Shown here piece after piece: positions 3,027 to 32,000 of a stretch of DNA of 32,000 nt. Source of the DNA: Candidatus Saccharimonadota bacterium (lineage in GTDB: Bacteria; Patescibacteriota; Saccharimonadia; Saccharimonadales; Saccharimonadaceae); the NCBI RefSeq assembly GCF_025273655.1, contig NZ_CP045921.1, forward strand, positions 990,001 to 1,022,000, in the 5' to 3' direction. How positions within the stretch are numbered: position 1 is the stretch's first letter; each line of letters begins with the position of its first letter. The notes under the pieces are model-generated. The model worked only from the letters and a program-made list of their open reading frames with translations. It did not search any database and was not told the DNA's origin. The position numbers and the translations under genes were made by a program.

Positions 3027-3055
3027 ATAACACCCCTCGCATGGAGGGGTGTTAT
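3027..3055 (-). terminator. Hairpin terminator downstream of gene 3074..4240
   Basis: A perfect 12-bp stem, ataacacccctc / gaggggtgttat, has a 5-nt loop (gcatg). The T-tract on the minus strand is only moderate (TTGCATGTTCT). Confidence 0.55.

Positions 3056-11610: not shown

Positions 11611-11611
<1 letters not shown>
11300..11611 (-). CDS. atpC: F-type ATP synthase epsilon subunit, beta-sandwich domain only
   Basis: VYAPFKVYFEGEAYSVSAVNATGPFDILPKHHNFLCMLVPCNLKI...HRALMHVKANRIVVFMDV matches the epsilon N-terminal domain (G.fgILp.H motif). The gene lies last in the atp cluster. Its GTG start overlaps the atpD stop (TAGTG). There is no C-terminal helical hairpin. Confidence 0.8.
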
Positions 11612-13924
<2,313 letters not shown>

Positions 13925-13928
<4 letters not shown>

Positions 13929-15490
13929 GACTTCTTCTCCTCGGCTGACTTCTGCTCTGCAGCTTTTTCTGCCTTGTCGGCGGCTTCGGCCTCTTCGGTC
14001 TGACGTTGTTTCTCTGCCTCGGCTTTGGCGGCTTTCTCGATTGCCGCTTTCTTCGCTTCGTCGATCGTCATCACTTCGGCCTTGAGCTGTGCGGCCAGCT
14101 CGTCAAAATTACCATTCATGTCCTTGTCTTCGGAGAACTTGGCTGCATACTCATGGACACGCTCTTTGAGTTTGTCGACGTTGATAATCTCCTCTGGTGC
14201 GCTCTCGAGCACAATACTCATGATGAACTGCTGCTCAGCAAAACTATACGTCTCACCAATTGCTTGGTTCATAAGTTTGAATAGCACCTTACCTTTGTCG
14301 TAATCGGCCTGCGCCTGCGGGCTCAGCTCGGTACCAAAGTGGGCGTATTCTTCGGCAGTACGATAGCCAGCGAGCGTGAGATTGAGCTTGTCGGCTAGGC
14401 CTTTTTGGCGCTTGTTTTGGCCAACGCCACCCACACGCGTCACCGATAGTGCAGTCGACACAGCTGGTCGCATAGTATCTTTGAATATCTTGCCATCCAA
14501 AATCCATTGACCGTCCGTGATAGACATGATGTTGGTCGGCAAATACGCCGTGATATCACCGCCCGGCGCGTACACGATCGGGATGAGTGTTTGTGAGGCG
14601 TGATTTGATTCCGTCTTGCCGCCGCGTTCCAGCAAACTCGAGTGCGTGTAGAACATATCGCCCGGATACGAGTCGCGCCCTGGGCTCACGCCGGCGATCA
14701 GCGAGATTTCACGGTAGGCCTGCGCGTGAGCTGTAAGATCGTCGTAAATCATGAGAGTATCCATATTGCACTGATGCCAGAAATACTCACCATGTGCTGC
14801 ACCAACATACGGCACTAGGTAGGTAAGGATAAGTGATTCAAAGGAGTTGGTGACGATCACAATCGCCTTTTTGAGGGCGTCGTTTTTTTCGAGATTATTC
14901 ACGAGTTCAGCCACGTCGCGCTGACGTTTGGCGATAAGCACATAGACGACAGTGATGTCAGTGTTTTTCTGGTTGATCGCCACCGACGCCGCCAGAGCAG
15001 TCTTGCCCACTTTGCTGTCGCCGAGCATAGCCATACGCTGACCACGCGCCAACGAGTATTCTAAGTCGAGAATAGTGATGCCCGTTTCTACCGGAGTATC
15101 GAGTAGCTCTCGCTCGTAGAGCGCTGGCGCTTTATGAAACACATCCCATTCCTGGTCGGCCTCGATCGGACCCTTGCCGTCGATCGGCTCACCAAACACA
15201 TTGATGACACGACCGATGAAGTTTTTGCCCACTGGTGTCATGATATCGCGCTTTTCGATGACACAGACATTGCCGACATGCAGCGGCGATGGATCGAGCT
15301 TCATAACCATGACATGGTCTTCGAATACCTGGTGCACATAACCGCGCGTGTCGTCTTCAAAGCGTACAGTAGCATGCACGTTGGTCGGCTGCAGGCCGCG
15401 CACACTCACCATGAACGAATCGATACCGATAATTTCACCGACAGGATTGCCAGATGCCACCAGTTTTTCGAAAAACTTAGCGCCCTGCAC
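13925..15490 (-). CDS. atpA: F-type ATP synthase alpha subunit (divergent)
   Basis: The Walker A loop is GDSKVGKT. The alpha signature is YDDLTAHAQAYREISLIAGVSPGRDSYPGDMFYTHSSLLER, and ITDGQWILDG...RPAVSTALSVTRVGG is also present. The GTG start overlaps atpH by 14 nt. The C-terminal tail is Lys/Glu/Ala-rich. Confidence 0.93.
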
Positions 15491-17936: not shown

Positions 17937-20111
17937 ATGTGGTGTCACCTCCCCACTGGTATTAGTCGACGTCGACTGCTGCAGTTCGTAGCAGTAGCAT
18001 CGCTTGCTATAGCGTTTTTCACAACGCTAGTATTTGCGCATGCGACGCAAGCCGCCGAGGGCGTCAATCAGACTCTCAGTTTTCAGGGGCGTCTGGCACA
18101 ATCTACCGGTGCACTCGTACCAGACGGCCACTACAACATTCAGTTCAAGATCTACCAGGACGGCGCGGGCACAAGCGCGGGCAATCCTGGCGGCAGCTTG
18201 AAATGGACCGAAACCTACATCAACAACAATGGCGACCAAGGTGTCGACGTCAAAAACGGCTACTTCTCTGTCACGCTCGGCTCGAAGAATCCGTTTGGCA
18301 ACCAAATCGACTGGAATCAAGACACGCTCTGGCTCTCAATGAACGTCGCCGGTAAAGATAATACCTGTACAACGTTTGGTAGCGGCAGCTGTACGGCAGA
18401 CGGCGAGATGCTACCCATGAAACGCATGACAGCAACACCATTCGCCATCAACTCTGCGCAGCTGGGTGGCAAAACAGCTGACAATTTCATTCAACTCGCA
18501 CAAGGAGTCCAAGAAGATGCAAGCAGTAACACTCCTAGCATCGCGATCAACAAGACAGGTAGCGGTAACTTCTTGCAACTGCAAAACAACGGAGTCAACG
18601 AGCTGAGTGTCACTGGCTCTGGCAATCTCGAATTTGGTAACGCCCAGGATCACGCAATTTATGTAGGTGGTGCTGGCGAAAACACAAATGGCAAGAATCT
18701 TACTCTATTCGCAGGCTGGGGTGGATGGGGTACATCGGGCGGCAACGGAGGTACACTGTTTCTACAGGGCGGCGGTGCGGGCGGCGACGGCAACTCTAAC
18801 GGAGGAGATGTTGTGATTACGGGTGGCTCCAAGACGGGCAATGGCTCGTCTGGAAGTATATTCCTCGGCGCAGATAGCACCAGCAATATCCAGGTGGGTA
18901 GTGCAAACCTCGGTAATGGCACACAGACTATCAATATCGGCAATAATTCTTCGGGTGGTACAACAAATATCACTATAGGTAGTGGCAGTGGTGCATCAGG
19001 TGGCTCGACAAAAATTCAATCAAAAGATACTGTCGCCGTATCTACCGATGGCGTAGACCGTGCAACATTCGATAGCAATGGCAATCTCTATCTAGGCAAT
19101 GGAGTCAGCAGTAGCAATCCGTCCGACTTCAAGATTCAAGGTACCGACAGTACAGCCAGCGGCGTGAGTGGCGGTGACCTAACAATACAAGGTGGTGGCG
19201 CCACAACCGGCAACACAAACGGTGGTAACCTGGTTCTGAACGGTGGAAGTGCAAATGGCACTGGCACAAACGGATCTGTTTCGATTGGTACTTCAAACAC
19301 GGGTGATGTCAACATTGGATCATCCTCAGGAGGCAAGGTTAATATCCAAAGTGGCACCGACGGAGTCACCGTTCAGTCCGGTGGCGTCGTAAGCGTCTCA
19401 TTCAACACTGCAAACGTTCAGGTTGGCGACGGTAGTGCATCAGGAGTACCTACTGTACTCACACTAGACAAAGCGTCTGCAGCACCAAATCTTGATCCTT
19501 CGATGGTGGGCAGTATGTATTACGATACGACCCTTGGCAAGGTGCAGTGCTACGAAGCCAATGGCTGGGGTGCTTGTGGTGCCGCGCCAGACACATTCGT
19601 ATCATTATCTCCAGAATATGCAGGCGCGATTGTCTCGGGTAGTGGTACGGGTACCATGTCGACAGATATCTGCTCAAACGACCTGGGCGTCAATACTTCT
19701 ATCTGTAATACCCACGAGACATATAATTTCTACAAATGGACCACAACGTCCTCCACATCACAGTTCAAAGTCATCTATGCCACATATCAACTACCAACTA
19801 ACTTCGATAAGTTCGTGGGCGGTTCAACTTCACTGATGGGTAAGACGGACAGCACCAACTCCCAGGTTTCTTACTACCTATACAGAGTTAAGGGTGATGG
19901 CAGTGGTACGGTTGCCTGCAACTCCACGGAATTCTTCGTATCTACTGGCGATCAGTCTACTTGGCAAAAGGGTGTTGGCACAGGCACGGCAGATCCCGCT
20001 AACTGTGGTTTTGTAGCCGGAGATCGCATCATGTTCAAGATCCCACTTGGCTCAAAGAGCAATGCAAATGCATACGCCAGCGACCTCAACTTTGCCTATA
20101 GCCTCAAGTAG
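17937..20111 (+). CDS. Large secreted Gly/Asn/Ser/Thr-rich beta-helix (tail-fibre/adhesin-like) surface protein
   Basis: After the ATG start, the signal peptide is RRRLLQFVAVASLAIAFFTTLVFAHATQA. The N-terminal module is LSFQGRLAQSTGALVPDGHYNIQFKIYQD...WTETY...VKNGYFSVTLG. The central part holds degenerate G-rich repeats (GGNGGTLFLQGGGAGGDGNSNGGDVVITGG...). The C-terminal module contains MYYDTTLGKVQCYEANGWGACG. Confidence 0.85.
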   Translation: MWCHLPTGISRRRLLQFVAVASLAIAFFTTLVFAHATQAAEGVNQTLSFQGRLAQSTGALVPDGHYNIQFKIYQDGAGTSAGNPGGSLKWTETYINNNGDQGVDVKNGYFSVTLGSKNPFGNQIDWNQDTLWLSMNVAGKDNTCTTFGSGSCTADGEMLPMKRMTATPFAINSAQLGGKTADNFIQLAQGVQEDASSNTPSIAINKTGSGNFLQLQNNGVNELSVTGSGNLEFGNAQDHAIYVGGAGENTNGKNLTLFAGWGGWGTSGGNGGTLFLQGGGAGGDGNSNGGDVVITGGSKTGNGSSGSIFLGADSTSNIQVGSANLGNGTQTINIGNNSSGGTTNITIGSGSGASGGSTKIQSKDTVAVSTDGVDRATFDSNGNLYLGNGVSSSNPSDFKIQGTDSTASGVSGGDLTIQGGGATTGNTNGGNLVLNGGSANGTGTNGSVSIGTSNTGDVNIGSSSGGKVNIQSGTDGVTVQSGGVVSVSFNTANVQVGDGSASGVPTVLTLDKASAAPNLDPSMVGSMYYDTTLGKVQCYEANGWGACGAAPDTFVSLSPEYAGAIVSGSGTGTMSTDICSNDLGVNTSICNTHETYNFYKWTTTSSTSQFKVIYATYQLPTNFDKFVGGSTSLMGKTDSTNSQVSYYLYRVKGDGSGTVACNSTEFFVSTGDQSTWQKGVGTGTADPANCGFVAGDRIMFKIPLGSKSNANAYASDLNFAYSLK

Positions 20112-22409: not shown

Positions 22410-23858
22410 TTAAACTAGGCGTATTTTACGCTCACGGCTGTCTTTACGAACCTTTGCCATTTTCTTGTCTTCACCAAACTTGAAATCATAGTTTCGGATG
22501 AACTTTGGGACTGATTCATCGTTATCTCGCATAGGTATGAATACTCTAAGTAAGGGGTTCATTTCCCCAGACAATACCGGTATGCTTGTTGGCTTAACGA
22601 TACCGCTCTTGAGTGTGATCTCAGCTGGTACACTGCCCAGCATCAACTTATCGAAATATACGAGTACTGATTCACGCATATCACGGTTATAGAACTCGTC
22701 TTTTGGCTTGGTTGTTGATACTGTTGGTTCTTTAGGCTCTGCTTTAGGAATGTAGCCGTTCTTCATACGTTGTTCGACCAGTTTTCGTATTTCTTCTTCA
22801 CTTTCGTAAGCCCGCAAGCTTCCTGACAAGAATCCGAGCCTGTAACTTACACCAGCACTCATTACTCGCCAGTTAGTATCCTCCAGAGCCTTCTCTATGG
22901 CTTTATGCAGGTCTTTCTTGCTTTGGTACTCTTCACGTTCGTCTTTGGTATCAAGGCAGCTGAAATCTAGTGATACTTCACGACCAATCTGTGGATCGCC
23001 AAGCTTAAAGTCGCTATAGCCCTCTTTAGTAAAGATTGGCTCGAGTAACTCCTTGAGTTGGACTATTTTGAGCTTCTTTACCTGTTTAATACCGTCATGC
23101 ACATCAACATGCTGTACTTTATCCTCGGCTGTGGCATGAAGTTTCGCCATTCTTTCAAAGTGTCTCAGCTTCTGGTCGTATTTGAAGATCATATCTTTAT
23201 CGAAAACGAAGCGTTTACGGTCGAGTTCTAGGTAAGGATCAACGGGTTCGGGCTCTTTCTTATCAGAGGATAGATCAAGTGTATCTGTTTTAACGTGCTT
23301 ACATTTCTCGCAGGTCTCAGTCCATGTAATAACATCGAACTCTTTGGTGGTCTTTGAGGTCGTATTACCACCGCATTTCTCACATTCATGCTTTGCACCT
23401 TCCCACTGCGTACCGTCTTCCCAAAGAGCCATACGCTTATTGCATTCTACGCATTCAAACATGATTAGGATGTCATCATCTTTGCGGCTATCACGGCGCA
23501 TATAGTCTTTGCTGATAACTCGCATGTCTTTACCGCAACTACGACAGTAAGTACCGCCTGAGATATGTGCTGAGGCTAAGCGGTTGTCTTTCTTCTCATC
23601 TTCCGCCACCCATTTTGCGATAGTAGCCTCCCGATTTTCAGCTCGTTCGGCTGCTGCCGATTCAACAAACCAAAAATAGTACAGGCTATACTGCAGATAC
23701 CAACCCGGCAACTTTTCAGTCAGCTCCTTTTTGGGGAGCTTCTTTTCCATGATCTTGAACGTATCATTTACGATTCGCTCACCGGAACGGCATTTGACTA
23801 CGGTACCGTCATCATAACGATCTTCGTAATACTTTTTGTCTTTTAGGTTCGTATACAT
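22410..23858 (-). CDS. Hypothetical protein with two CxxC...CxxC zinc-ribbon modules (cassette gene 4)
   Basis: The 482-aa protein has two cysteine quartets: C105-x2-C108...C136-x2-C139 and C159-x2-C162...C183-x2-C186 (YCRSCGKDM...ECVECNKRM; ECEKCGGN...TCEKCKHV). The remainder is charged, mixed alpha/beta sequence with no motif I recognise. Confidence 0.8.
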   Translation of the reverse strand: MYTNLKDKKYYEDRYDDGTVVKCRSGERIVNDTFKIMEKKLPKKELTEKLPGWYLQYSLYYFWFVESAAAERAENREATIAKWVAEDEKKDNRLASAHISGGTYCRSCGKDMRVISKDYMRRDSRKDDDILIMFECVECNKRMALWEDGTQWEGAKHECEKCGGNTTSKTTKEFDVITWTETCEKCKHVKTDTLDLSSDKKEPEPVDPYLELDRKRFVFDKDMIFKYDQKLRHFERMAKLHATAEDKVQHVDVHDGIKQVKKLKIVQLKELLEPIFTKEGYSDFKLGDPQIGREVSLDFSCLDTKDEREEYQSKKDLHKAIEKALEDTNWRVMSAGVSYRLGFLSGSLRAYESEEEIRKLVEQRMKNGYIPKAEPKEPTVSTTKPKDEFYNRDMRESVLVYFDKLMLGSVPAEITLKSGIVKPTSIPVLSGEMNPLLRVFIPMRDNDESVPKFIRNYDFKFGEDKKMAKVRKDSRERKIRLV

Positions 23859-23876: not shown

Positions 23877-24743
23877 CTAGCAAGTATTGTTAGTTCTTTG
23901 AGCAAGCTCAATTTTCTTAAAGATTAGACCATTGTGACTATTTAACCCACCACTACATTCGAGCAAATGGATCATGTCTTCCGTGTGCTTGTTAGCATTA
24001 GTAATCATATCCTCTATAGCCTCATCACCAACTTGCTCCACTCCAAGTATCCACACCGTTTCTTTCACGTAGTTCTGCGGATATATCTTCAGAACATGGT
24101 AATACTTACTAGAAACTTTTAGATACATGTGAATTACTTCTGCTAAAAGATCTAGCATTTCTTTTGCTGGTCGGAGATCATGTTTAAATTTGCGAGACAA
24201 AGTGTGCGTTACATATGTCATACCCTCCTCAGCCCTTTGACCAGTAGTAACTTTATAGTACTTACCGTCTTTTGGTTGGTGGAATGCAAAAGCCTGATAC
24301 GGTTCGACACGCTTTAAATATAGGTTAGATATTTTTGATAAGTGGTCTTTGGCCAAAGGAAATAACGGCTCAATGACTTTTTTCTCATCTTCACTAACCT
24401 TGTGTTCGTACTTGTCGTAATAATACGACTCGTAGTCTTCTATGTTTAAATCTCTAACTGATTCCAAATATGCGTTTGCAAGAGCTGGCTCCTGCCTTGA
24501 AAATAGTAAACGAAGATGTAAGAACATTGAGTCAACGCAGGAAAAGTATATTTGGAAGAATACAGCACAGGTATTACAGTTCCTGCCTTTAATATGCCCA
24601 TGACCAGCCTTAGAATTAGCCCATACTTCAACTAACACATTCGCTACAATCAGTTTCTCGACACACTCTCGGTATACATCTAAAAGATAGCGGTGAGTCT
24701 TTTCATCTCCGAAGAATTTTTCATTTATTTCTTCGACTTTCAT
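23877..24743 (-). CDS. Hypothetical helical protein (cassette gene 3)
   Basis: The ATG at 24743 lies 1 nt after the stop of the 1186-aa gene (TAA-C-ATG). The track's TTG at 24758 would overlap by 14 nt. The 288-aa protein has no signal peptide or TM helix and no recognisable catalytic motif. Confidence 0.75.
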   Translation of the reverse strand: MKVEEINEKFFGDEKTHRYLLDVYRECVEKLIVANVLVEVWANSKAGHGHIKGRNCNTCAVFFQIYFSCVDSMFLHLRLLFSRQEPALANAYLESVRDLNIEDYESYYYDKYEHKVSEDEKKVIEPLFPLAKDHLSKISNLYLKRVEPYQAFAFHQPKDGKYYKVTTGQRAEEGMTYVTHTLSRKFKHDLRPAKEMLDLLAEVIHMYLKVSSKYYHVLKIYPQNYVKETVWILGVEQVGDEAIEDMITNANKHTEDMIHLLECSGGLNSHNGLIFKKIELAQRTNNTC

Positions 24744-24744
24744 G

Positions 24745-27700
24745 TTAGTTTTCGTCAATGTCCTTCGCGTAAAGTGATGGGTAGGATGCCTTAAGTTTAT
24801 CGAGAACTGTTTTTGCTTCGCCTGTTTTAATTTGTCTTAAGATATCGTAGTGCAATTGAGGCTTGAACATCGGTTGGTAGCCTTCAGGGTATGACAAGAT
24901 GATCCTTAGCATCTCTAGGTATTTCTCATCACCAGCAAGTTCTTTGGCGGTAATAAGGAAGTCATCATTATAATGGTGGCTCCACCATGATGACCTCTCA
25001 AGCGTTTTATAATTCTCACTAATCCATGCTTGTTCGTTACGCGTTATTTTCTCCCATAATCGTAAGCTTTGTTCGGGACGTTCTTTGATTCGATCGTTTA
25101 CGAAGTAGGCAGCTCTGTTAAATGCTTCTCTAGTGTATCGGTCTGCAATCTTGTCTAGGTACTCAAAGGATAGATCAATATCCTCTTCGTAGTTACTGCC
25201 TTTCTTGGGGAGCGTCCAGAAGAACCATCCTATATGAGTCCTCGCCTCGTCGTTATCACTTTCAATTATCATGTTTAGCAGATCTTTAAATGGTTGATCG
25301 TCAAAGTTGTTAACTTTCTGGTACATATCTTCGCCAAAAAGCTTCTTAAAAGATTCATCAGTGAAAAAGTTTTTTCTAAAAAGAGCAAAAGAAATTAAAA
25401 GCGTGTATATATCATCCGTCTTCGCCTTATTGTCAATTAGCCCATATTGTTTGAAAACATGCATTGCCTGTTCTGTGGTCATGGTTCTAAAGCGGTGCAA
25501 GACTGCTTCTAAGTGGTGAAGTATGACCTTGTTATCGTATTTGTCGACTAATTCAAGTGATAGATTCTCGATATGATCGGAAAGCTCACGGGGTATGAAT
25601 CTCTTATCAGTTTTTGGCAGTACCGAGTGTCTGTTCTGCATTAGCGATGTCAATGGAATCATTCCTTGAGTAACAACGTATAGATTCTCGTCTTTGACTA
25701 GCTTCTCGGTCATTTGTGCAACTTCTTCTAGATGATCCTTACCTCGCATCGAAATTAGCGACGACAGGATCCATGCCACCCAACCCCGTACAGTTGTTAT
25801 GATTCTTGGATCCTCTTCACCGTTAAGAATCTTGAGATGATAGTTAGACTGGCCTTTTGGATCGTCAGGATCATTCTCAAGCTTGGGGTGCGAATCATTG
25901 ATAAATATACGTGCAATCTCTAGCGCTTCGTTAACAAATCCTTGCTTTGCTAAATGTTCACCAAACTGAACTGCAAGCTGTCGAGGGTAGTGCTCTGTGA
26001 GTCGTGCCTCAATACGGGAATTGTCGCCGCCCAACTCATCGTAGAGAACTGGTCGTACGAAATCCTGATATAACTTACCTATGAGCGCTTTGTTATCCTT
26101 GTCAACTTGTTCAATGCTTAGCCAGATTGCTGTTTGCTGGTTGCTGGTCAAAACATCCGATTTATTGATATCACGAAGTATCTTTAGCCCCGAATCATAA
26201 TCTCGCTCGATAACCTGTGCGATGGTTCGGCTAATATCGTACGAGTCAAACGAACCAAGTTCATGAGTGAATTCCTTGGTCTTAAGATAACTATTCAATA
26301 CTTCCACGCCTGTTTCAAATAGCTTAGTCGTCGGATCAGATGAAAGTAGTTGTATCATAATGCGGCCCACGTAGAAGCTGTGCCATACTTGTCGTTTACG
26401 GTATTCGGGGTTGTCCATCCATGAAACGATTGCTGAAAGTGCACGTTCATCGCCATCAAGAGCGAGCGAGGAGACGATCTGCTCAACAAACACGCTATAT
26501 GGTAGGGTGTATTTTTTTAGGAAAATATTTATTAATGACCATTTTTTATCATTAGATAAATCAGGATTTTTATCTCGTAGCATTTGAAAAATAAGTTCGT
26601 GCTTTGATGGAATTCCCTTTCGGGCAATGACTTGATTCTTCAGTATTTTTAACGCATCATCACTATGTTCACCGTCACTATACTCTTGCAGAACTATATG
26701 TAATGCAGCTCGATTCAAAAAATCAGGTCTATCTACTGATACATTTGAATCTTTTGAAATAAATCTTTCATTAACTAATTTCCAGGCCGATGTCTTATCG
26801 AAAGCATAATGTTCTTTCAAGGCGGGCTCGAGGACATGTTGAATATAGTGTCTGTCATTTAAGGTGAATTGATCCCCAGATTGGCTGACGCCCCCGCCCA
26901 TACCATCCCAACCATTATATGATCCACCGTAAATCTTAGCGTTTTGATACTGACCGACAATTATGTCGATTACTTCTTCAATCCTGTTGATGAAGTCGGC
27001 TGCGAGATACTTATATAAAATATTAAAAATCGGAGATGGGGTATATATATCATATTCACCGTCATCATCGATGAGATTAAAGTAAAGTGACACTAGCTCA
27101 ATAGATCTACCAATATATTCCTGATTTTTGGTTGCTTGGAAGTAATCAAATGTAAGCACTAGTAGCTTTGCTATTTCTACTTTTTCTTGTCGATCACTCC
27201 TATCATCAAGCTCGGTGTAGTCCACTCGTTTGTCCTTAAGGAATGCGTCGATGAAGTCATAAACCTGAGGCGAAAGATCAGAGTGCTCCTTTAGAATCAT
27301 TTCCATTGTTTGCATAGCGAACTCTGCCCGAAAATCATCGAATGCCGGATTAGTAAAAGCATCCGTATGACTAGCGAAGAGCCCTATTGTGTAGGCTGCA
27401 TTTTCTCGATCCTTTATATGATCTTTAAAATCGTAAACTACGCGGAACGAGTATTGTCGATCTATGATTTTTGACCATACGATATCCCAGTCAGCAAGCT
27501 TCAGTCCCTTCTGGCTAAATATCTCCTGGATAACAAAGTACATAAGGTCAGGCTGAATAGTCCACGCGCTAATATTTCGCTTAATTTGGTTCTCATCGTG
27601 GTTTTTTATATGTGTCAGAATACTTTTAAATTGTTGCGGGATGTCCGTCTGTCGTCTGTCGTATTCGACATTTTTATCTAGCTCGTTATCGTAGTAGTTA

Positions 27701-28305
27701 TCAACGTCATCACTTAATTGCTGTCTAGTGAACTTCTCGCCCTTGGTTGCTTTCCTGAAAAAGCTACTCATAACAATTGAATCAAGCCATCTCTCGACAT
27801 CTGCACGTGGGAGCCACGCACCAGCCAGCTTAGGGTGGTTATAGAAATACGCTAATGACTCCTCGTATAAGAACTCTGCCGATTCGGGCTTAAAGAATGA
27901 GACTCTAGGCAGTAATTCAATTTCTTTTGCAGAGTAACCTTTTTGTGTGAACCAAGCTTCATGATCCGTGTACCAGCGCAGGTGCTTTATCCGCTCTTCC
28001 AGATCGTTACTTACGGATGGACAAACAATAAGTATTTCATCTTTTTCACTAAGATCATCTGGGCTCTCGGTAATGTTTTTCAATATTTTAAGTAAATTAC
28101 TTGTCGTGAAGGCACGTGCATAGTACTTCGATTCACATACTATCTTTTTACCGTCTACGTAAACGAGAGTAAAGTCTTCCCAATTTTTATCCTCAAGGAT
28201 AATTGAATCAAAAGAAGCCTCTCGTGATCGCATAAGAAATAGTAAAACCGCAGACCACGTCTGGTAATCGAGCCCTTTGAAATTATTCATGCCCGCAGTA
28301 CTCAT
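24745..28305 (-). CDS. Giant (1186 aa) protein: N-terminal Cap4/DUF4297-like PD-(D/E)xK nuclease head plus about 1100 aa of helical repeats (cassette gene 2)
   Basis: The N-terminus FKGLDYQTWSAVLLFLMRS...IILEDKNWEDFTLVYVDGKKIVCESKYY fits the DUF4297 pattern (G.xYQ helix, acidic E/D cluster, then ExK/QxK). The remainder is helix-rich. I found no GxxxxGK[ST] Walker A motif. The start ATGA overlaps the upstream gene. Confidence 0.8.
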   Translation of the reverse strand: MSTAGMNNFKGLDYQTWSAVLLFLMRSREASFDSIILEDKNWEDFTLVYVDGKKIVCESKYYARAFTTSNLLKILKNITESPDDLSEKDEILIVCPSVSNDLEERIKHLRWYTDHEAWFTQKGYSAKEIELLPRVSFFKPESAEFLYEESLAYFYNHPKLAGAWLPRADVERWLDSIVMSSFFRKATKGEKFTRQQLSDDVDNYYDNELDKNVEYDRRQTDIPQQFKSILTHIKNHDENQIKRNISAWTIQPDLMYFVIQEIFSQKGLKLADWDIVWSKIIDRQYSFRVVYDFKDHIKDRENAAYTIGLFASHTDAFTNPAFDDFRAEFAMQTMEMILKEHSDLSPQVYDFIDAFLKDKRVDYTELDDRSDRQEKVEIAKLLVLTFDYFQATKNQEYIGRSIELVSLYFNLIDDDGEYDIYTPSPIFNILYKYLAADFINRIEEVIDIIVGQYQNAKIYGGSYNGWDGMGGGVSQSGDQFTLNDRHYIQHVLEPALKEHYAFDKTSAWKLVNERFISKDSNVSVDRPDFLNRAALHIVLQEYSDGEHSDDALKILKNQVIARKGIPSKHELIFQMLRDKNPDLSNDKKWSLINIFLKKYTLPYSVFVEQIVSSLALDGDERALSAIVSWMDNPEYRKRQVWHSFYVGRIMIQLLSSDPTTKLFETGVEVLNSYLKTKEFTHELGSFDSYDISRTIAQVIERDYDSGLKILRDINKSDVLTSNQQTAIWLSIEQVDKDNKALIGKLYQDFVRPVLYDELGGDNSRIEARLTEHYPRQLAVQFGEHLAKQGFVNEALEIARIFINDSHPKLENDPDDPKGQSNYHLKILNGEEDPRIITTVRGWVAWILSSLISMRGKDHLEEVAQMTEKLVKDENLYVVTQGMIPLTSLMQNRHSVLPKTDKRFIPRELSDHIENLSLELVDKYDNKVILHHLEAVLHRFRTMTTEQAMHVFKQYGLIDNKAKTDDIYTLLISFALFRKNFFTDESFKKLFGEDMYQKVNNFDDQPFKDLLNMIIESDNDEARTHIGWFFWTLPKKGSNYEEDIDLSFEYLDKIADRYTREAFNRAAYFVNDRIKERPEQSLRLWEKITRNEQAWISENYKTLERSSWWSHHYNDDFLITAKELAGDEKYLEMLRIILSYPEGYQPMFKPQLHYDILRQIKTGEAKTVLDKLKASYPSLYAKDIDEN

Positions 28306-29195
28306 GACACCTCACCACCCTCAGTTTGGGTTGTTTCAGCAGGGATGGCTACACCCTCGTACACATTCATTAATTGCTCAATATCATTACATGCAAGTTC
28401 GAGACTACCTCCTGAACCAGGAGATATACCTTCAGTTTGAAGCTTGTATCTTGCGTAATAGTTGATCATTGCACTACGAAATTCATCGATTAGACTTTCT
28501 TGGGTTCCAGCTTTTGACTGAATAATGCTTAGTAGTTCATGGATTAGCATATCTTCGGGAAATGCAATTGGATTAGGAAAGCTTATTGGCAGATTCCTAG
28601 CGACCCGTCGTACCTTTTCCCGTACGTTATCCTTTATGTCACTATCTGGGTCTCCTGCGATAACAGTAAGTGGTGAACCTTCTTCAAAAACTATAGCCCT
28701 AATAGATGTATGGAGATCGTCATCGCTGTCGTAACAGTCACTTGAAAGCTTGTCTTTAAAATACTGCAGCGCACTCTGGGCATCTTCGGTCGATAGCGTA
28801 GTGTAATGATGAAGTCTTTGTGCGTGGTCTCTGAAATTTCTGACAGCAACTGCCCTATCTTTGCTAATAATGACAGTACTTTTGTCATTAATGCTAAGCA
28901 CTGAATTCTTTCTAAGCTTTGCATAATCTGCGACCGTTTCGAATACTAGGCCTGTCTTCTCTTTAAAGTATTGACCAGTCTTGACTTCATAAACCTCTTG
29001 CGTCGGTACTCCAGAATTATCGATGAGTTCTACTAAAAGATCGTAGGATTTCTTGTTAGTTGAGTCGTACTCAAAATCAACAAAGAACTTTTCCATTTTT
29101 CTTTTTGCCTCATAGTTACTCAAGAAAACGAGAATGGCATAGAGGTCTTGGTAATAAAAGCCTATCCGAGTGCTACGTATCGCAGTGCTAGGCAT
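28302..29195 (-). CDS. 297-aa protein with Cap4/DUF4297-like PD-(D/E)xK nuclease head (cassette gene 1)
   Basis: The N-terminus is TRIGFYYQDLYAILVFLSNY...FFVDFEYDS...YDLLVELID...QEVYEVKTGQ. It shows the same G.xYQ ... acidic ... E-x-K arrangement as the first 65 aa of the 1186-aa protein. It starts 9 nt after the hsdR stop. Confidence 0.75.
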   Translation of the reverse strand: MPSTAIRSTRIGFYYQDLYAILVFLSNYEAKRKMEKFFVDFEYDSTNKKSYDLLVELIDNSGVPTQEVYEVKTGQYFKEKTGLVFETVADYAKLRKNSVLSINDKSTVIISKDRAVAVRNFRDHAQRLHHYTTLSTEDAQSALQYFKDKLSSDCYDSDDDLHTSIRAIVFEEGSPLTVIAGDPDSDIKDNVREKVRRVARNLPISFPNPIAFPEDMLIHELLSIIQSKAGTQESLIDEFRSAMINYYARYKLQTEGISPGSGGSLELACNDIEQLMNVYEGVAIPAETTQTEGGEVS

Positions 29196-29204
29196 AATTT
29201 TAGC

Positions 29205-32000
29205 CTACTCTCCCAATCTGCCGTTCGAAATGTCGAAGAACTTATTGAAGAACGATGCTAATTTATCTAACACTGTTTCTCGCTTCTTGCCACGACTTTG
29301 GTCTGGGCTGAAACGAGAGACAGGGGGCATGATTTTTGTGATAGCAGTACCGCTCGTTTGTACACCGCCGTCACGGAATGCCCTTTCAATAAACTTGTAG
29401 GTTTCTTCACGGTCAAGATTTTCCTCAGAGATAATTCGATCAAGCTCTTCTATCTTCTTGGAATTCACGAATGACTGCCAGTCGTCATCAACGGATGAGT
29501 CAACATTAATACTGCTGATGAATTGTTCGATAAGTTCCTTCTTGTTCCGAAGCTCGATGCTTGAATCAATAGCTTTGTTAATATCAACAAGCAGTTCCTT
29601 ATCCTCTTGGTTACTTGCATGATATTTGCGGATGAGTTCAAGGATGTAATCAATATTTATCTCGACTTGTTTGATGAGCTCCATTTCAAATACGATGTCA
29701 TCGTTGATATTTTCTTTGTCACTCTCATTAACTTTGCGGAACTCATCGTAAAAGTTAATGTACATGCTGTGGTAATCCTGCACATCACGCTCAGATAGGA
29801 TCTCGTTACCCGTAAAGTCATCGAATGTAGAGAGAATGTTGCGCACCTTTAGGATTGCACCATAGAGTTTAATGAAATCCTTTTTATTCTGCTCACCGAT
29901 TATAGGCTGGCCAACTGGGAATCGTTCAATCAACTCATTAACAAGCTCGGCATATCCGCGCACCTGCTTACCTTCTGCTTCATAACCGTCGTAATACTCA
30001 CGGAATGACTTGAGTAGTACGATTCCGCTAGCTTCTTTATCACCAAAGAGCGACAGAGAATCATTGGTGGCCTTCTCTAGGTTACGGAAAGTAACAATGT
30101 TGCCAAATGTCTTAATTGAATTTAGAATTCGGTTGGTTCGTGAATAGGCCTGGAGTAGCCCATGCATTCGCAAGTTCTTGTCTATCCAGAGTGTATTTAA
30201 AGTTGTGGCATCAAAGCCTGTCAGGAACATGTTCACTACAATGAGCAGATCAATCTCGCGGTTCTTCATACGCAAACTGACATCTTTGTAGTAATTCTGG
30301 AACTTATCGGATGATGTATCGTAGTTTGTACCGAACATTTGGTTGTAATCTTTTATCGCAGCTTCGAGGAAGTCGCGTGAGTTTTTGTCTAGACCATCTG
30401 TATTGTCGGAGTTTTCGTCCTCGAGCCCATCCATTTCATCATCGACTTCATTAGCACCGTAACTGAATATCGTGGCTATCTTTAATTTCTTTAACTCTGG
30501 TACATCTGCTTGTTGCTTGTTGAACTCTGTATAGTACAGCTTTGCAACATCGATAGAGCTGACGGCAAATATGGAGTTAAACCCGCTTAGTCGAATCTTT
30601 TGCTTGATTTCTTCAACGGCCGAACGGTCTTTTGCCGATGCGGCTTCATGGACGCTTGCTAAAGCGGTGAATGCGTACGGCTTACTGTTGCGCTTAGTCT
30701 TTTGATCAAAGTGATCACGAATATATTGTGTGACATTTGAGATGCGTTCCGGCGCAGCCAAGGCTTTTTCGCGGTCAATGTCACGTACCTGTGAGTCATC
30801 GACATCGTCAGCCTCTTTTATGGTTCGGATGTAGTCAATGCGAAAAGGCAGTACGTTTTTGTCAGTGATAGCATCGACTATCGTGTACGTATGTAGCTTT
30901 TCGCCAAAGGCCTGTTCGGTCGTTTTTAGATCAACACGACCACCACTAGAAGAGTTTTTAGCGAAGATAGGGGTACCCGTAAAACCAAAGAGGTGGTAGT
31001 TTTTGAAGCTGGTTGTGACTGCGTGGTGCATATCTCCGAACTGTGATCGGTGACACTCATCAAAGATGATTATGACGTGACCATCAAATACTTTGTGTCC
31101 TTCGTTCTTCTTTATGAACTTATCTAGTTTTTGAATGGTTGTGATTATGATTCTAGCATTGTCGTTTTCAAGTTGTTTGGTAAGTTTGGCAGTGCTCGTA
31201 TTGCTATTAGCCGCGCCTTTCTCAAACTTGTCATACTCCTTCATGGTTTGATAGTCGAGGTCTTTACGGTCGACAACGAATAGTACTTTATCTACGGATG
31301 ATAATTTACTGGCAAGTTGAGCTGTCTTGAAGCTAGTCAACGTTTTGCCCGATCCAGTGGTATGCCAAATGTATCCGCCAGCTTCGATGGTGCCTAGTTT
31401 TTTATAGTTCGTTGAAACTTCAACCCGATTCAATATTCGCTCAGTTGCAACGATCTGGTAGGGTCGCATTGCAAGCAGTAATCGGTCGCTGGTAAACACG
31501 CAGTATTTTGTTAGGACGTTTAAGATCGCATGTTTAGCAAAGAACGTCTGACCAAAGTCCATAAGATCAAAAATAGGCTTGTTATTTGCATCTGCCCACC
31601 AGCTCGTAAACTCAAAACTGTTGCTGGTTTTCTTTGTTCGTTTAGCACGAGTCTCACTAGCCTCTTTGATGTGCTGGAACCGTGTAGTGTTGCTGTAGTA
31701 TTTTGTGTACGTTCCGTTGCTGATAACAAATAGCTGTACATATTCGTATAGTCCACTATCCGCCCAGAAGCTATCACGCTGATAACGGTTAATCTGATTG
31801 AAGGCTTCTTGCAGAGCCACACCTCGACGCTTCAGCTCAACATGCACGAGTGGCAAGCCATTTACGAGAATCGTGACATCATAGCGGTTAGCCCGTGCAC
31901 CGTCCACTTCGTATTGGTTAATTACTTGGAGGCTATTATTGTGAATGTTTTTCTTATCTATAAGATATATATTGCGCTTGAATTGACCGTGTTCGTCGTA
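29205..32000 (-). CDS. hsdR: Type I restriction enzyme R subunit (helicase-nuclease), N-terminus beyond the window
   Basis: The nuclease region is DVTILVNGLPLVHVELKRRG. SF2 helicase motifs are HTTGSGKTLTSF (motif I), IIFDECHRSQ (motif II, DEAH-like) and FGFTGTP (motif III), with QAYSRTNR also present. The C-terminal module resembles the EcoR124-type HsdR C-terminus. The reading frame stays open to base 32000 (...YDEHGQFKRNIYLIDKKNIHNNSLQVINQYEVDGARANRYD), so the GTG at 31907 in the track is internal. Confidence 0.93.
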   Translation of the reverse strand, partial: YDEHGQFKRNIYLIDKKNIHNNSLQVINQYEVDGARANRYDVTILVNGLPLVHVELKRRGVALQEAFNQINRYQRDSFWADSGLYEYVQLFVISNGTYTKYYSNTTRFQHIKEASETRAKRTKKTSNSFEFTSWWADANNKPIFDLMDFGQTFFAKHAILNVLTKYCVFTSDRLLLAMRPYQIVATERILNRVEVSTNYKKLGTIEAGGYIWHTTGSGKTLTSFKTAQLASKLSSVDKVLFVVDRKDLDYQTMKEYDKFEKGAANSNTSTAKLTKQLENDNARIIITTIQKLDKFIKKNEGHKVFDGHVIIIFDECHRSQFGDMHHAVTTSFKNYHLFGFTGTPIFAKNSSSGGRVDLKTTEQAFGEKLHTYTIVDAITDKNVLPFRIDYIRTIKEADDVDDSQVRDIDREKALAAPERISNVTQYIRDHFDQKTKRNSKPYAFTALASVHEAASAKDRSAVEEIKQKIRLSGFNSIFAVSSIDVAKLYYTEFNKQQADVPELKKLKIATIFSYGANEVDDEMDGLEDENSDNTDGLDKNSRDFLEAAIKDYNQMFGTNYDTSSDKFQNYYKDVSLRMKNREIDLLIVVNMFLTGFDATTLNTLWIDKNLRMHGLLQAYSRTNRILNSIKTFGNIVTFRNLEKATNDSLSLFGDKEASGIVLLKSFREYYDGYEAEGKQVRGYAELVNELIERFPVGQPIIGEQNKKDFIKLYGAILKVRNILSTFDDFTGNEILSERDVQDYHSMYINFYDEFRKVNESDKENINDDIVFEMELIKQVEINIDYILELIRKYHASNQEDKELLVDINKAIDSSIELRNKKELIEQFISSINVDSSVDDDWQSFVNSKKIEELDRIISEENLDREETYKFIERAFRDGGVQTSGTAITKIMPPVSRFSPDQSRGKKRETVLDKLASFFNKFFDISNGRLGE

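Follow-up and report, generated by a model that had tools for sequence, protein, structure and literature searches.

We analyzed a stretch of DNA of 32,000 nucleotides (nt), hereafter the window, from a Candidatus Saccharimonadota bacterium (contig NZ_CP045921.1, positions 990,001 to 1,022,000), focusing on two adjacent genes that lie on its minus strand directly behind a type I restriction-modification (RM) gene. The first of the two, at 28302..29195, encodes a protein of 297 amino acids (aa), referred to here as the small protein, and the second, at 24745..28305, encodes a protein of 1186 aa, referred to here as the giant. An initial annotation, made from the letters of the sequence alone, had proposed that both proteins start with the same nuclease-like head. 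The two open reading frames (ORFs) exist on the minus strand as it described, and all the peptide strings it quoted are present in their translations. Reading of the gene junctions revealed that the stop codon of hsdR is separated from the ATG of the small gene by 9 nt, and that the small gene passes into the giant gene through ...GAG GTG TCA TGA GTA CTG..., where the TGA of the former and the ATG of the latter share 4 nt, which is the ATGA overlap noted earlier.

Nuclease domains of the small protein and the giant

A word-index homologue search returned only 3–5 relatives of the small protein, and an exhaustive HMMER search was required, which identified 46 representatives in a library of 1.84 billion proteins. 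In the family alignment of 44 sequences, residues R10, G12, Q16, S50, D52, K72 and G74 are invariant, while Y15, D17, D40 and E70 are at least 90% conserved, and this region (aa 10–74, 28974..29168 on the minus strand) constitutes the putative catalytic motif. The AlphaFold2 (AF2) model of the small protein, with a predicted local distance difference test score (pLDDT) of 84.8 and a predicted template modelling score (pTM) of 0.83, contains helices (H) and strands (E) in the order H6–29, E33–44, E49–58, E64–72, H75–96 and E105–111. This corresponds to an alpha-beta-beta-beta-alpha-beta core; the C-terminal half of the protein is helical and its tail is disordered. The motif residues are distributed along the core, with R10, G12 and Y15-Q16-D17 placed in helix 1, D40 in strand 1, D52 at strand 2 and E70-V-K72 at strand 3, and they align to the residues GFGYQD ... 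D ... YEAK of AbCap4.

Comparison of the small model to solved structures with Foldseek revealed Salmonella LmuA as the best match (9hr5, E=3.9e-6, TM-score 0.50), together with AbCap4 (6wan, E=9.9e-4, root-mean-square deviation 4.9 over 240 columns) and further matches to LmuA (9nxx and 9uxh), MspJI, HerA-DUF4297 (9c1m) and Avs3 (8dgc). Profile searches point in the same direction: the PADLOC LmuA model matches the small protein (E=4.4e-5) as well as 16 of the 44 family members, the family profile recovers the nuclease domain of AbCap4 (6vm6 residues 12–135, E=1.8e-4), and PF14130, the Pfam family of Cap4, is matched by 8 of 11 small-family members taken from a mixed alignment (best E=5.5e-7). 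The small protein searched alone against PDB sequences gave nothing relevant. Taken together, fold, motif and profile matches indicate that the small protein is a stand-alone Cap4/LmuA-like PD-(D/E)xK nuclease, and we refer to this class of partner as type A.

For the giant we collected 18 relatives from protein databases (26–98% identity), 20 loci from GTDB genomes, which were searched with a 9-sequence subset of the giant alignment, and 36 metagenome loci. The head of the giant, comprising a nuclease core and a helical subdomain, spans aa 1–215 (27661..28305, minus strand). Across 19 full-length sequences G11, Q15, F23, E38, D44, F45, E58 and K60 are invariant; when 26 non-redundant heads were aligned, G11, Q15, E38, D44 and K60 remained invariant and conservation of E58 was 90% or higher. 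The AF2 model of the full giant has a pLDDT of 84.8, and the head in it consists of H14–26, E32–37, E45–49, E54–59, H68–79 and E90–94 followed by the helical subdomain, which is again an alpha-beta-beta-beta-alpha-beta core. Three of the 26 heads match PF14130, with a best E-value of 1.1e-4. The initial annotation had predicted a PD-(D/E)xK fold of the Cap4/DUF4297 kind for both heads, with acidic and lysine residues conserved in homologues. The structural models, the profiles, the PF14130 matches of the relatives and, for the small protein, the Foldseek results are all in agreement with it, and the acidic and lysine residues are invariant or at least 90% conserved in both families.

The resemblance of the two heads to each other had been read from the two proteins themselves, and at that level it did not hold: BLASTP of the two N-termini gave 10 identities in 23 positions with E=0.53, which is not significant. 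Family alignments were therefore built and compared with hhalign. The giant head, represented by 26 sequences, matched the small family with a probability of 95.6% and E=1.3e-8 over 92 columns, and an independent 44-sequence alignment of the small family gave E=3.2e-7. In the resulting register the GxxYQ motifs are aligned, and Q15/Q16, D44/D52 and E58-x-K60/E70-x-K72 are paired (giant/small). The resemblance of the heads is therefore real and not a chance similarity, although it is visible only at the level of families. It is on this profile link to the small families, in addition to fold and motif, that the putative Cap4 assignment of the giant head rests.

We also compared the head with a second class of Cap4-like partner, type B, which is described below. 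The E-values were 3.2e-7 for giant head and type A, 1.2e-6 for giant head and type B, and 3.1e-8 for type A and type B, such that the three groups appear to be roughly equidistant branches. As the branches are about equally distant from one another, a recent tandem duplication, which had been offered as the origin of the pair, is disfavoured; the presence of unrelated enzymes (CHAT, Schlafen, Mrr-like and HNH) at the upstream position in close relatives speaks against it as well.

The solenoid body and its exchangeable partners

The remainder of the giant, aa 216–1186 (24745..27660, minus strand), was assigned as its body from the AF2 model and Foldseek. It is almost entirely helical in the model, with about 970 residues arranged as a HEAT/ARM-like solenoid. 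Foldseek comparison of the whole giant with PDB structures returned only generic HEAT/ARM solenoids at a TM-score of about 0.2, and the proteins matched by the body include CAND1, importin-beta, transportin and the HEAT subunits of condensin and cohesin. The Walker A or P-loop motif ([AG]xxxxGK[ST]) is missing in 19 of 19 giants, and no nucleoside triphosphatase (NTPase) family in Pfam or NCBIfam matched the protein; a reading of the giant as a P-loop or STAND protein was rejected for want of Walker A in all 19. Single-sequence scans against Pfam, NCBIfam, PADLOC and PHROGs assigned the giant to no family (for PADLOC, in none of the 19 giants), and the whole-giant profile found no relative among PDB sequences, a weak match to the REV1 C-terminus being regarded as noise. 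In the BFVD viral structures Foldseek found nothing for the whole giant at E<=0.001, and the patterns used to search IMG/VR recovered no relatives; a viral origin of the family was rejected on the latter result.

Conservation within the body is densest at aa 465–590 (26536–26913, minus strand), according to the giant family alignment. This block is characterized by the patterns GW..G...S..G......D.H, PDF..R and GIP.K and includes the only beta-hairpin of the body (aa 473–482). Its invariant residues are G465, W466, G470, S474, G477, D484, H486, W508, P527, D528, F529, R532, G564, I565, P566, K568, K588 and W589.

To compare what is encoded upstream of the giants, the ORF ending at the giant start was taken from each of about 51 distinct loci, clustered and scanned against Pfam. 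In about 47 of them the upstream gene ends no more than about 8 nt from the giant start, often with an overlap of 4 or 8 nt; the four remaining loci comprise one without a coupled gene, two effector-body fusions and one with an unrelated membrane-protein gene 58 nt upstream. The partners fall into several classes. Schlafen AlbA_2 proteins are found in 10 loci (E down to 3e-21), Cap4-like proteins of type A, the class of the window, in nine, and Cap4-like proteins of type B in six. The latter are about 263 aa long and carry the motif Y-Q-D ... E-x4-D-F-E ... Q-V-K. Six further loci encode Mrr/HsdR-N-like PD-(D/E)xK proteins, recognized by weak Pfam matches only, 5–6 encode a CHAT protease (E down to 4.7e-7), and one encodes an HNH_2 protein. 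A predicted membrane protein family and an unknown family account for three loci each, and lone unclassified ORFs for two (L018, 208 aa; L045, 73 aa). No coupled gene is present in L005, the neighbour in L056 is the loosely placed membrane-protein gene, of DsbD type, and the effector-body fusions or splits of P0054, L047 and L051 complete the 51. All identifiable classes are typical defence effectors. Partner class does not track the phylogeny of the giants: those 60% and 48% identical to the window's giant have a CHAT partner, while one at 41% has a partner of type A.

In some loci the partner and the giant are joined or divided in other ways. P0054 (L029, 998–4822) is a protein of 1274 aa in which residues 3–250 match the small protein and residues 285–1178 match residues 224–1097 of the giant (E=6e-108). 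Similarity to the giant thus starts at its residue 224, the head is replaced by a type A small protein, and no gene is coupled upstream in this locus. A second fusion of type A to a headless body, 1279 aa long, is encoded at 3041–6880 of L047. The body ORFs of L051 (691–4546) and L052 (1232–4823) share 83% identity over 900 aa, and their upstream ORFs end in 95 residues that correspond to the first body repeats and are 78% identical. The N-terminal effector, however, belongs to Cap4-type A in L051 and to the Mrr-like class in L052, which is a clean module swap. Conversely, the giants of L009, L018, L022 and L046 lack the head and retain the upstream partner. From these fusions, swaps and headless forms it follows that the solenoid body is the constant element, and the head and the upstream protein would be effector modules placed on it in cis or in trans. 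That the small protein and the giant may work together physically is supported best by the fusions.

Two further features of the gene ends were observed. In both L051 and L052 a single ORF encodes the effector together with the first 95 body residues, and a stop codon with an 8-nt overlap separates it from the remaining 900 aa at the same site; either a gene split that has been conserved or a programmed frameshift could explain this. The ending EGG(E)(I/V)x, behind a Ser/Thr/Pro-rich linker, is shared by many Cap4-type partners (28302–28330 in the window). The window codons for this ending, given as GAGGGTGGTGAGG and as GAGGGTGGTGAGGTGTCATGA, are Shine-Dalgarno-like for the giant gene; a strict core of this type precedes the giant start in 11 of 28 loci. 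The shared ending is probably, at least in part, the shadow of a ribosome-binding site and not a docking peptide. A C-terminal docking peptide common to all partner classes was rejected, as the non-Cap4 classes do not have the EGG(E)(I/V)x ending.

Neighbouring genes and genomic setting

The pair belongs to a tightly packed row of minus-strand genes in which hsdR, the small and giant genes, a 288-aa gene (23877..24743) and a 482-aa gene (22410..23858) are followed by an Hsp20 gene. The hsdR gene (29205..32000, minus strand), which encodes the type I restriction subunit R, is cut at its 5' end by the edge of the window; its product matches HSDR_N, SWI2_SNF2, ResIII, T1R_D3-like and EcoR124_C in Pfam and REase_I in PADLOC (1067 bits). 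The giant TAA is separated by 1 nt from the ATG of the 288-aa gene, also on the minus strand. The product of this gene had no match in Pfam, PADLOC, NCBIfam or PHROGs, and BLAST did not match it to any gene located 3' of other giants. The gene is found only in the closest relatives, L025 and L026, and whether it is part of the module is uncertain. The 482-aa protein, on the same strand, has four CxxC pairs (zinc ribbons) and a weak match to the FmdB zinc ribbon. Its homologues are encoded immediately 3' of the giant in three further loci overall, among them L001 (365 aa) and L005 (372 aa), at 31–34% identity (E=1e-46 to 1e-67), and are missing from most other loci, making it a possible clade-specific accessory gene. 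The genes for the alpha, gamma and beta subunits of an F-type ATP synthase are located at 11611–15490 on the minus strand, 9 kb from the pair, so that the window is regarded as chromosomal. A 724-aa ORF on the opposite strand (17937–20111, plus) gave very weak matches only, to a TAT-signal-like N-terminus and to a fibre protein.

Hosts of the giants are mostly Patescibacteria, the GTDB loci coming from Saccharimonadales, WWE3, Doudnabacteria, Peribacteria, Magasanikbacteria, Parcubacteria and Paceibacterota, and a few metagenome-assembled genomes with the giant family come from other phyla. A type I RM system adjoins the pair in the window, L025 and L026. In L025, which is 98% identical, the order is hsdM-hsdS-hsdR (1041 aa)-297-1186-288-482, with terminase and ParB-methylase genes at one end of the row and a serine recombinase gene at the other. 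The giant loci of L001, L027 and L030 follow directly after an MmeI-like type IIG RM gene, the giant locus of L003 is accompanied by a Bsp6I RM system, Vsr and a KAP NTPase, and that of L028 lies inside a conjugative element.

The genes downstream of the giant differ by clade. In L003 (11803–12906) and L030 (8268–9243) the giant is followed by a tiny ORF of 72–75 aa and then by a gene for a PDDEXK_1 (Cas4/AddB-like) nuclease, and tiny ORFs of 53–82 aa are also located 3' of the giant in L001 and L012. The sequences of L025 (1–3178) and L027 (1–2705) share a common flank, in which a gene of 136–138 aa and a ParB_N-N6_N4 methyltransferase gene lie by a terminase-like gene. The cargo beside this flank differs, being a type I RM system with a Cap4-type A partner in L025 and an MmeI-like RM gene with a CHAT partner in L027, which suggests a hotspot on a related integrated element.

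A candidate defence module and the competing explanations

Several known defence systems resemble the pair in part. Cap4 (PF14130; AbCap4 6vm6 and 6wan) is similar in fold, helical subdomain, the G-x-x-Y-Q helix and the Asp ... (E/Q)-x-K residues. However, Cap4 of the cyclic oligonucleotide-based antiphage signalling system (CBASS) has a SAVED/CARF sensor and a cGAS/DncV-like nucleotidyltransferase as neighbour, neither of which was matched in the pair or in the neighbouring genes, and the match of the small family to 6vm6 covers the nuclease part only. LmuA is likewise a stand-alone nuclease with a helical C-terminal part. It is activated by oligomerization, and its cleavage of DNA requires the pairing of two nuclease domains within a tetramer (bioRxiv 10.1101/2025.03.14.643221). 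The Lamassu system differs from the window, where no PADLOC match to LmuB (SMC-like) or LmuC was found among the neighbours and a solenoid without an ATPase is encoded instead. HerA-DUF4297 is another case in which a Cap4-type double-stranded DNA nuclease depends on assembly-driven dimerization with a large partner, the HerA assembly dimerizing DUF4297 (PMC11291478), whereas the large partner in the window is not a HerA ATPase and both window proteins carry a nuclease.

With respect to architecture, the closest parallel is DSR2, and the Avs (AVAST) proteins are similar in part. DSR2 has an N-terminal effector, a long HEAT region and no NTPase; its oligomers are held together by the effector domains, and a phage tail tube protein binds in the HEAT cavity as the trigger (PMC11263360). 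It differs in having a Sir2 effector and a single gene, while the giant has a nuclease head and a second, exchangeable effector gene upstream. No sequence similarity between the giant and DSR2 was detected, and the architectures are analogous only. Avs proteins such as Avs3 (8dgc) combine an N-terminal Cap4-like nuclease with C-terminal helical repeats and swap their N-terminal effectors, including nucleases, proteases and others; they are defined by a STAND NTPase, in contrast to the giants, which have no Walker A motif and no PADLOC Avs match. Two defence systems restricted to Patescibacteria, 'Dallas' (DdgA) and LdgA, were obtained by functional metagenomics and described by their authors as having no structural homology to known proteins (PMC12366544); this published description would argue against the giant family being identical with DdgA or LdgA. 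Our literature searches found no description of the giant family or of its two-effector, NTPase-free organization. The nuclease domains belong, as divergent members, to a superfamily already known; none of the libraries queried recognized the giant family or its organization.

Given these parallels, we infer that the pair is, with moderate probability, a defence module composed of a solenoid sensor or scaffold and nuclease effectors. It would form the core of an undescribed modular system against phages or mobile elements, placed directly behind the type I RM operon. The giant would be effector and sensor in a single chain, with an intact Cap4-type nuclease head on an NTPase-free, HEAT-like solenoid, and the translationally coupled upstream gene would supply an exchangeable second effector, here a nuclease of the Cap4/LmuA type. 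By analogy with the HEAT region of DSR2, the solenoid body may bind an infection cue, most likely a phage protein, which would alter its conformation or oligomeric state. The nuclease domains, either two heads or a head and a small protein, would thereby be brought together, and the paired domains would degrade DNA and abort the infection. This pairing step is proposed because Cap4-type nucleases need pairing for their active site; sensing by the solenoid, a physical interaction of small protein and giant, and activation by pairing are, like the defence function itself, inferred. A more specific version, in which the giants are an undescribed family of NTPase-free solenoid immune receptors with two effectors and the active nuclease of the window would be a cis/trans heteromer of head and small protein that assembles only once the solenoid has bound a phage cue, is put forward tentatively, and we consider it doubtful as a whole.

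Several observations weigh against the defence reading or its parts. The initial annotation had looked to PF14130 for both proteins, and what was found among relatives does not extend to the window: the small protein reaches 12.8 bits (E=0.14), under the gathering cut-off of 26.2 bits, and the window's giant has no match, such that both heads would best be described as divergent relatives of PF14130 and not as curated members. The giant-head profile found no direct Cap4 match among PDB sequences, and Foldseek of the full giant is dominated by the solenoid, so that the head is linked to solved structures through profile comparison only. With two intact nucleases present, the need for a second effector is puzzling. 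A rapidly evolving sensor of phage proteins would not be expected to contain the invariant block at aa 465–590, which hints at a ligand that is conserved or at an enzymatic role. In addition, the association with defence islands comes from a handful of annotated loci and is anecdotal, not statistical.

Of the competing explanations, the one we rate highest, if only slightly, is that the pair is no independent system but an accessory module of the adjacent RM system, supplementing the type I enzyme or backing it up, for example by acting on DNA translocated or cut by HsdR. The 9 nt between hsdR and the small gene would fit such a role, as would the relatives placed directly 3' of MmeI-like type IIG genes (L001, L027 and L030) or near RM genes (L003 and L013). 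However, the type of the neighbouring RM system varies (I, IIG and II), no RM gene adjoins the giant loci of L028, within its conjugative element, or of L029, beside a NERD gene, and the pattern is that of defence islands in general. We regard a dedicated RM accessory as unlikely.

The initial annotation favoured a hetero-oligomeric nuclease in which one copy might be catalytic and the other a degenerate regulator or decoy. An obligate heterodimer of small protein and head is in keeping with the homology of the two domains, with their back-to-back, translationally coupled genes and with the action of Cap4-type nucleases as paired domains. The notion of a dead subunit is not supported, as the catalytic Asp and (E)-x-K residues show no or almost no variation in either family and neither copy looks degenerate. 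Moreover, about two thirds of the related loci have a partner that is not Cap4-like, and some giants have no partner (L005) or no head (L009, L018, L022 and L046). We therefore consider the obligate, half-inactive heterodimer quite unlikely. A hetero-oligomeric nuclease of head and small protein is nevertheless plausible for the window and would be one attractive route to an active site, since Cap4-type nucleases are activated by pairing, but such pairing is not general, because CHAT and Schlafen partners fill the same slot.

A toxin-antitoxin-like arrangement, in which the small protein would not be an effector but would keep the giant nuclease silent until infection, as its regulator or immunity factor, would account for the upstream position and the overlapping stop and start codons, both typical of antitoxin-toxin pairs, and for the fusion proteins, which show that the two parts act together. 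Yet the recognizable partner classes are all enzymes of the effector type (nucleases, CHAT protease and Schlafen) with intact catalytic motifs, and one would expect an inhibitor to co-evolve with a single conserved target and not to be exchanged between unrelated folds on bodies that are 83% identical, which makes this arrangement distinctly improbable. Least probable by our assessment is a role outside immunity, in which the pair would serve DNA processing or the maintenance of a mobile element that has integrated (for addiction or exclusion, for example) and the solenoid would be a scaffold. In favour of it, terminase, ParB-methylase and serine-recombinase genes flank L025 and L027, and type IV secretion and relaxase genes flank L028. 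However, relatives are absent from the viral contig collection and the viral structure predictions searched, the window is chromosomal, and effectors that are both toxic and exchangeable are characteristic of defence systems.

If the defence reading is correct, the pair would represent a defence family built on a different chassis, without a STAND, SMC, HerA or cyclic-nucleotide component. The exchange of effectors provides a natural experiment, with bodies that are 83% identical carrying unrelated effectors and with fused, split and headless forms, and these forms could reveal how solenoid sensors pass activation to different enzymes. The family also offers an annotation handle for proteins of about 1,200 residues that have no assignment in Pfam, NCBIfam, PADLOC or PHROGs. 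As it is concentrated in Patescibacteria, it provides a concrete immune candidate for a group that is still poorly understood.

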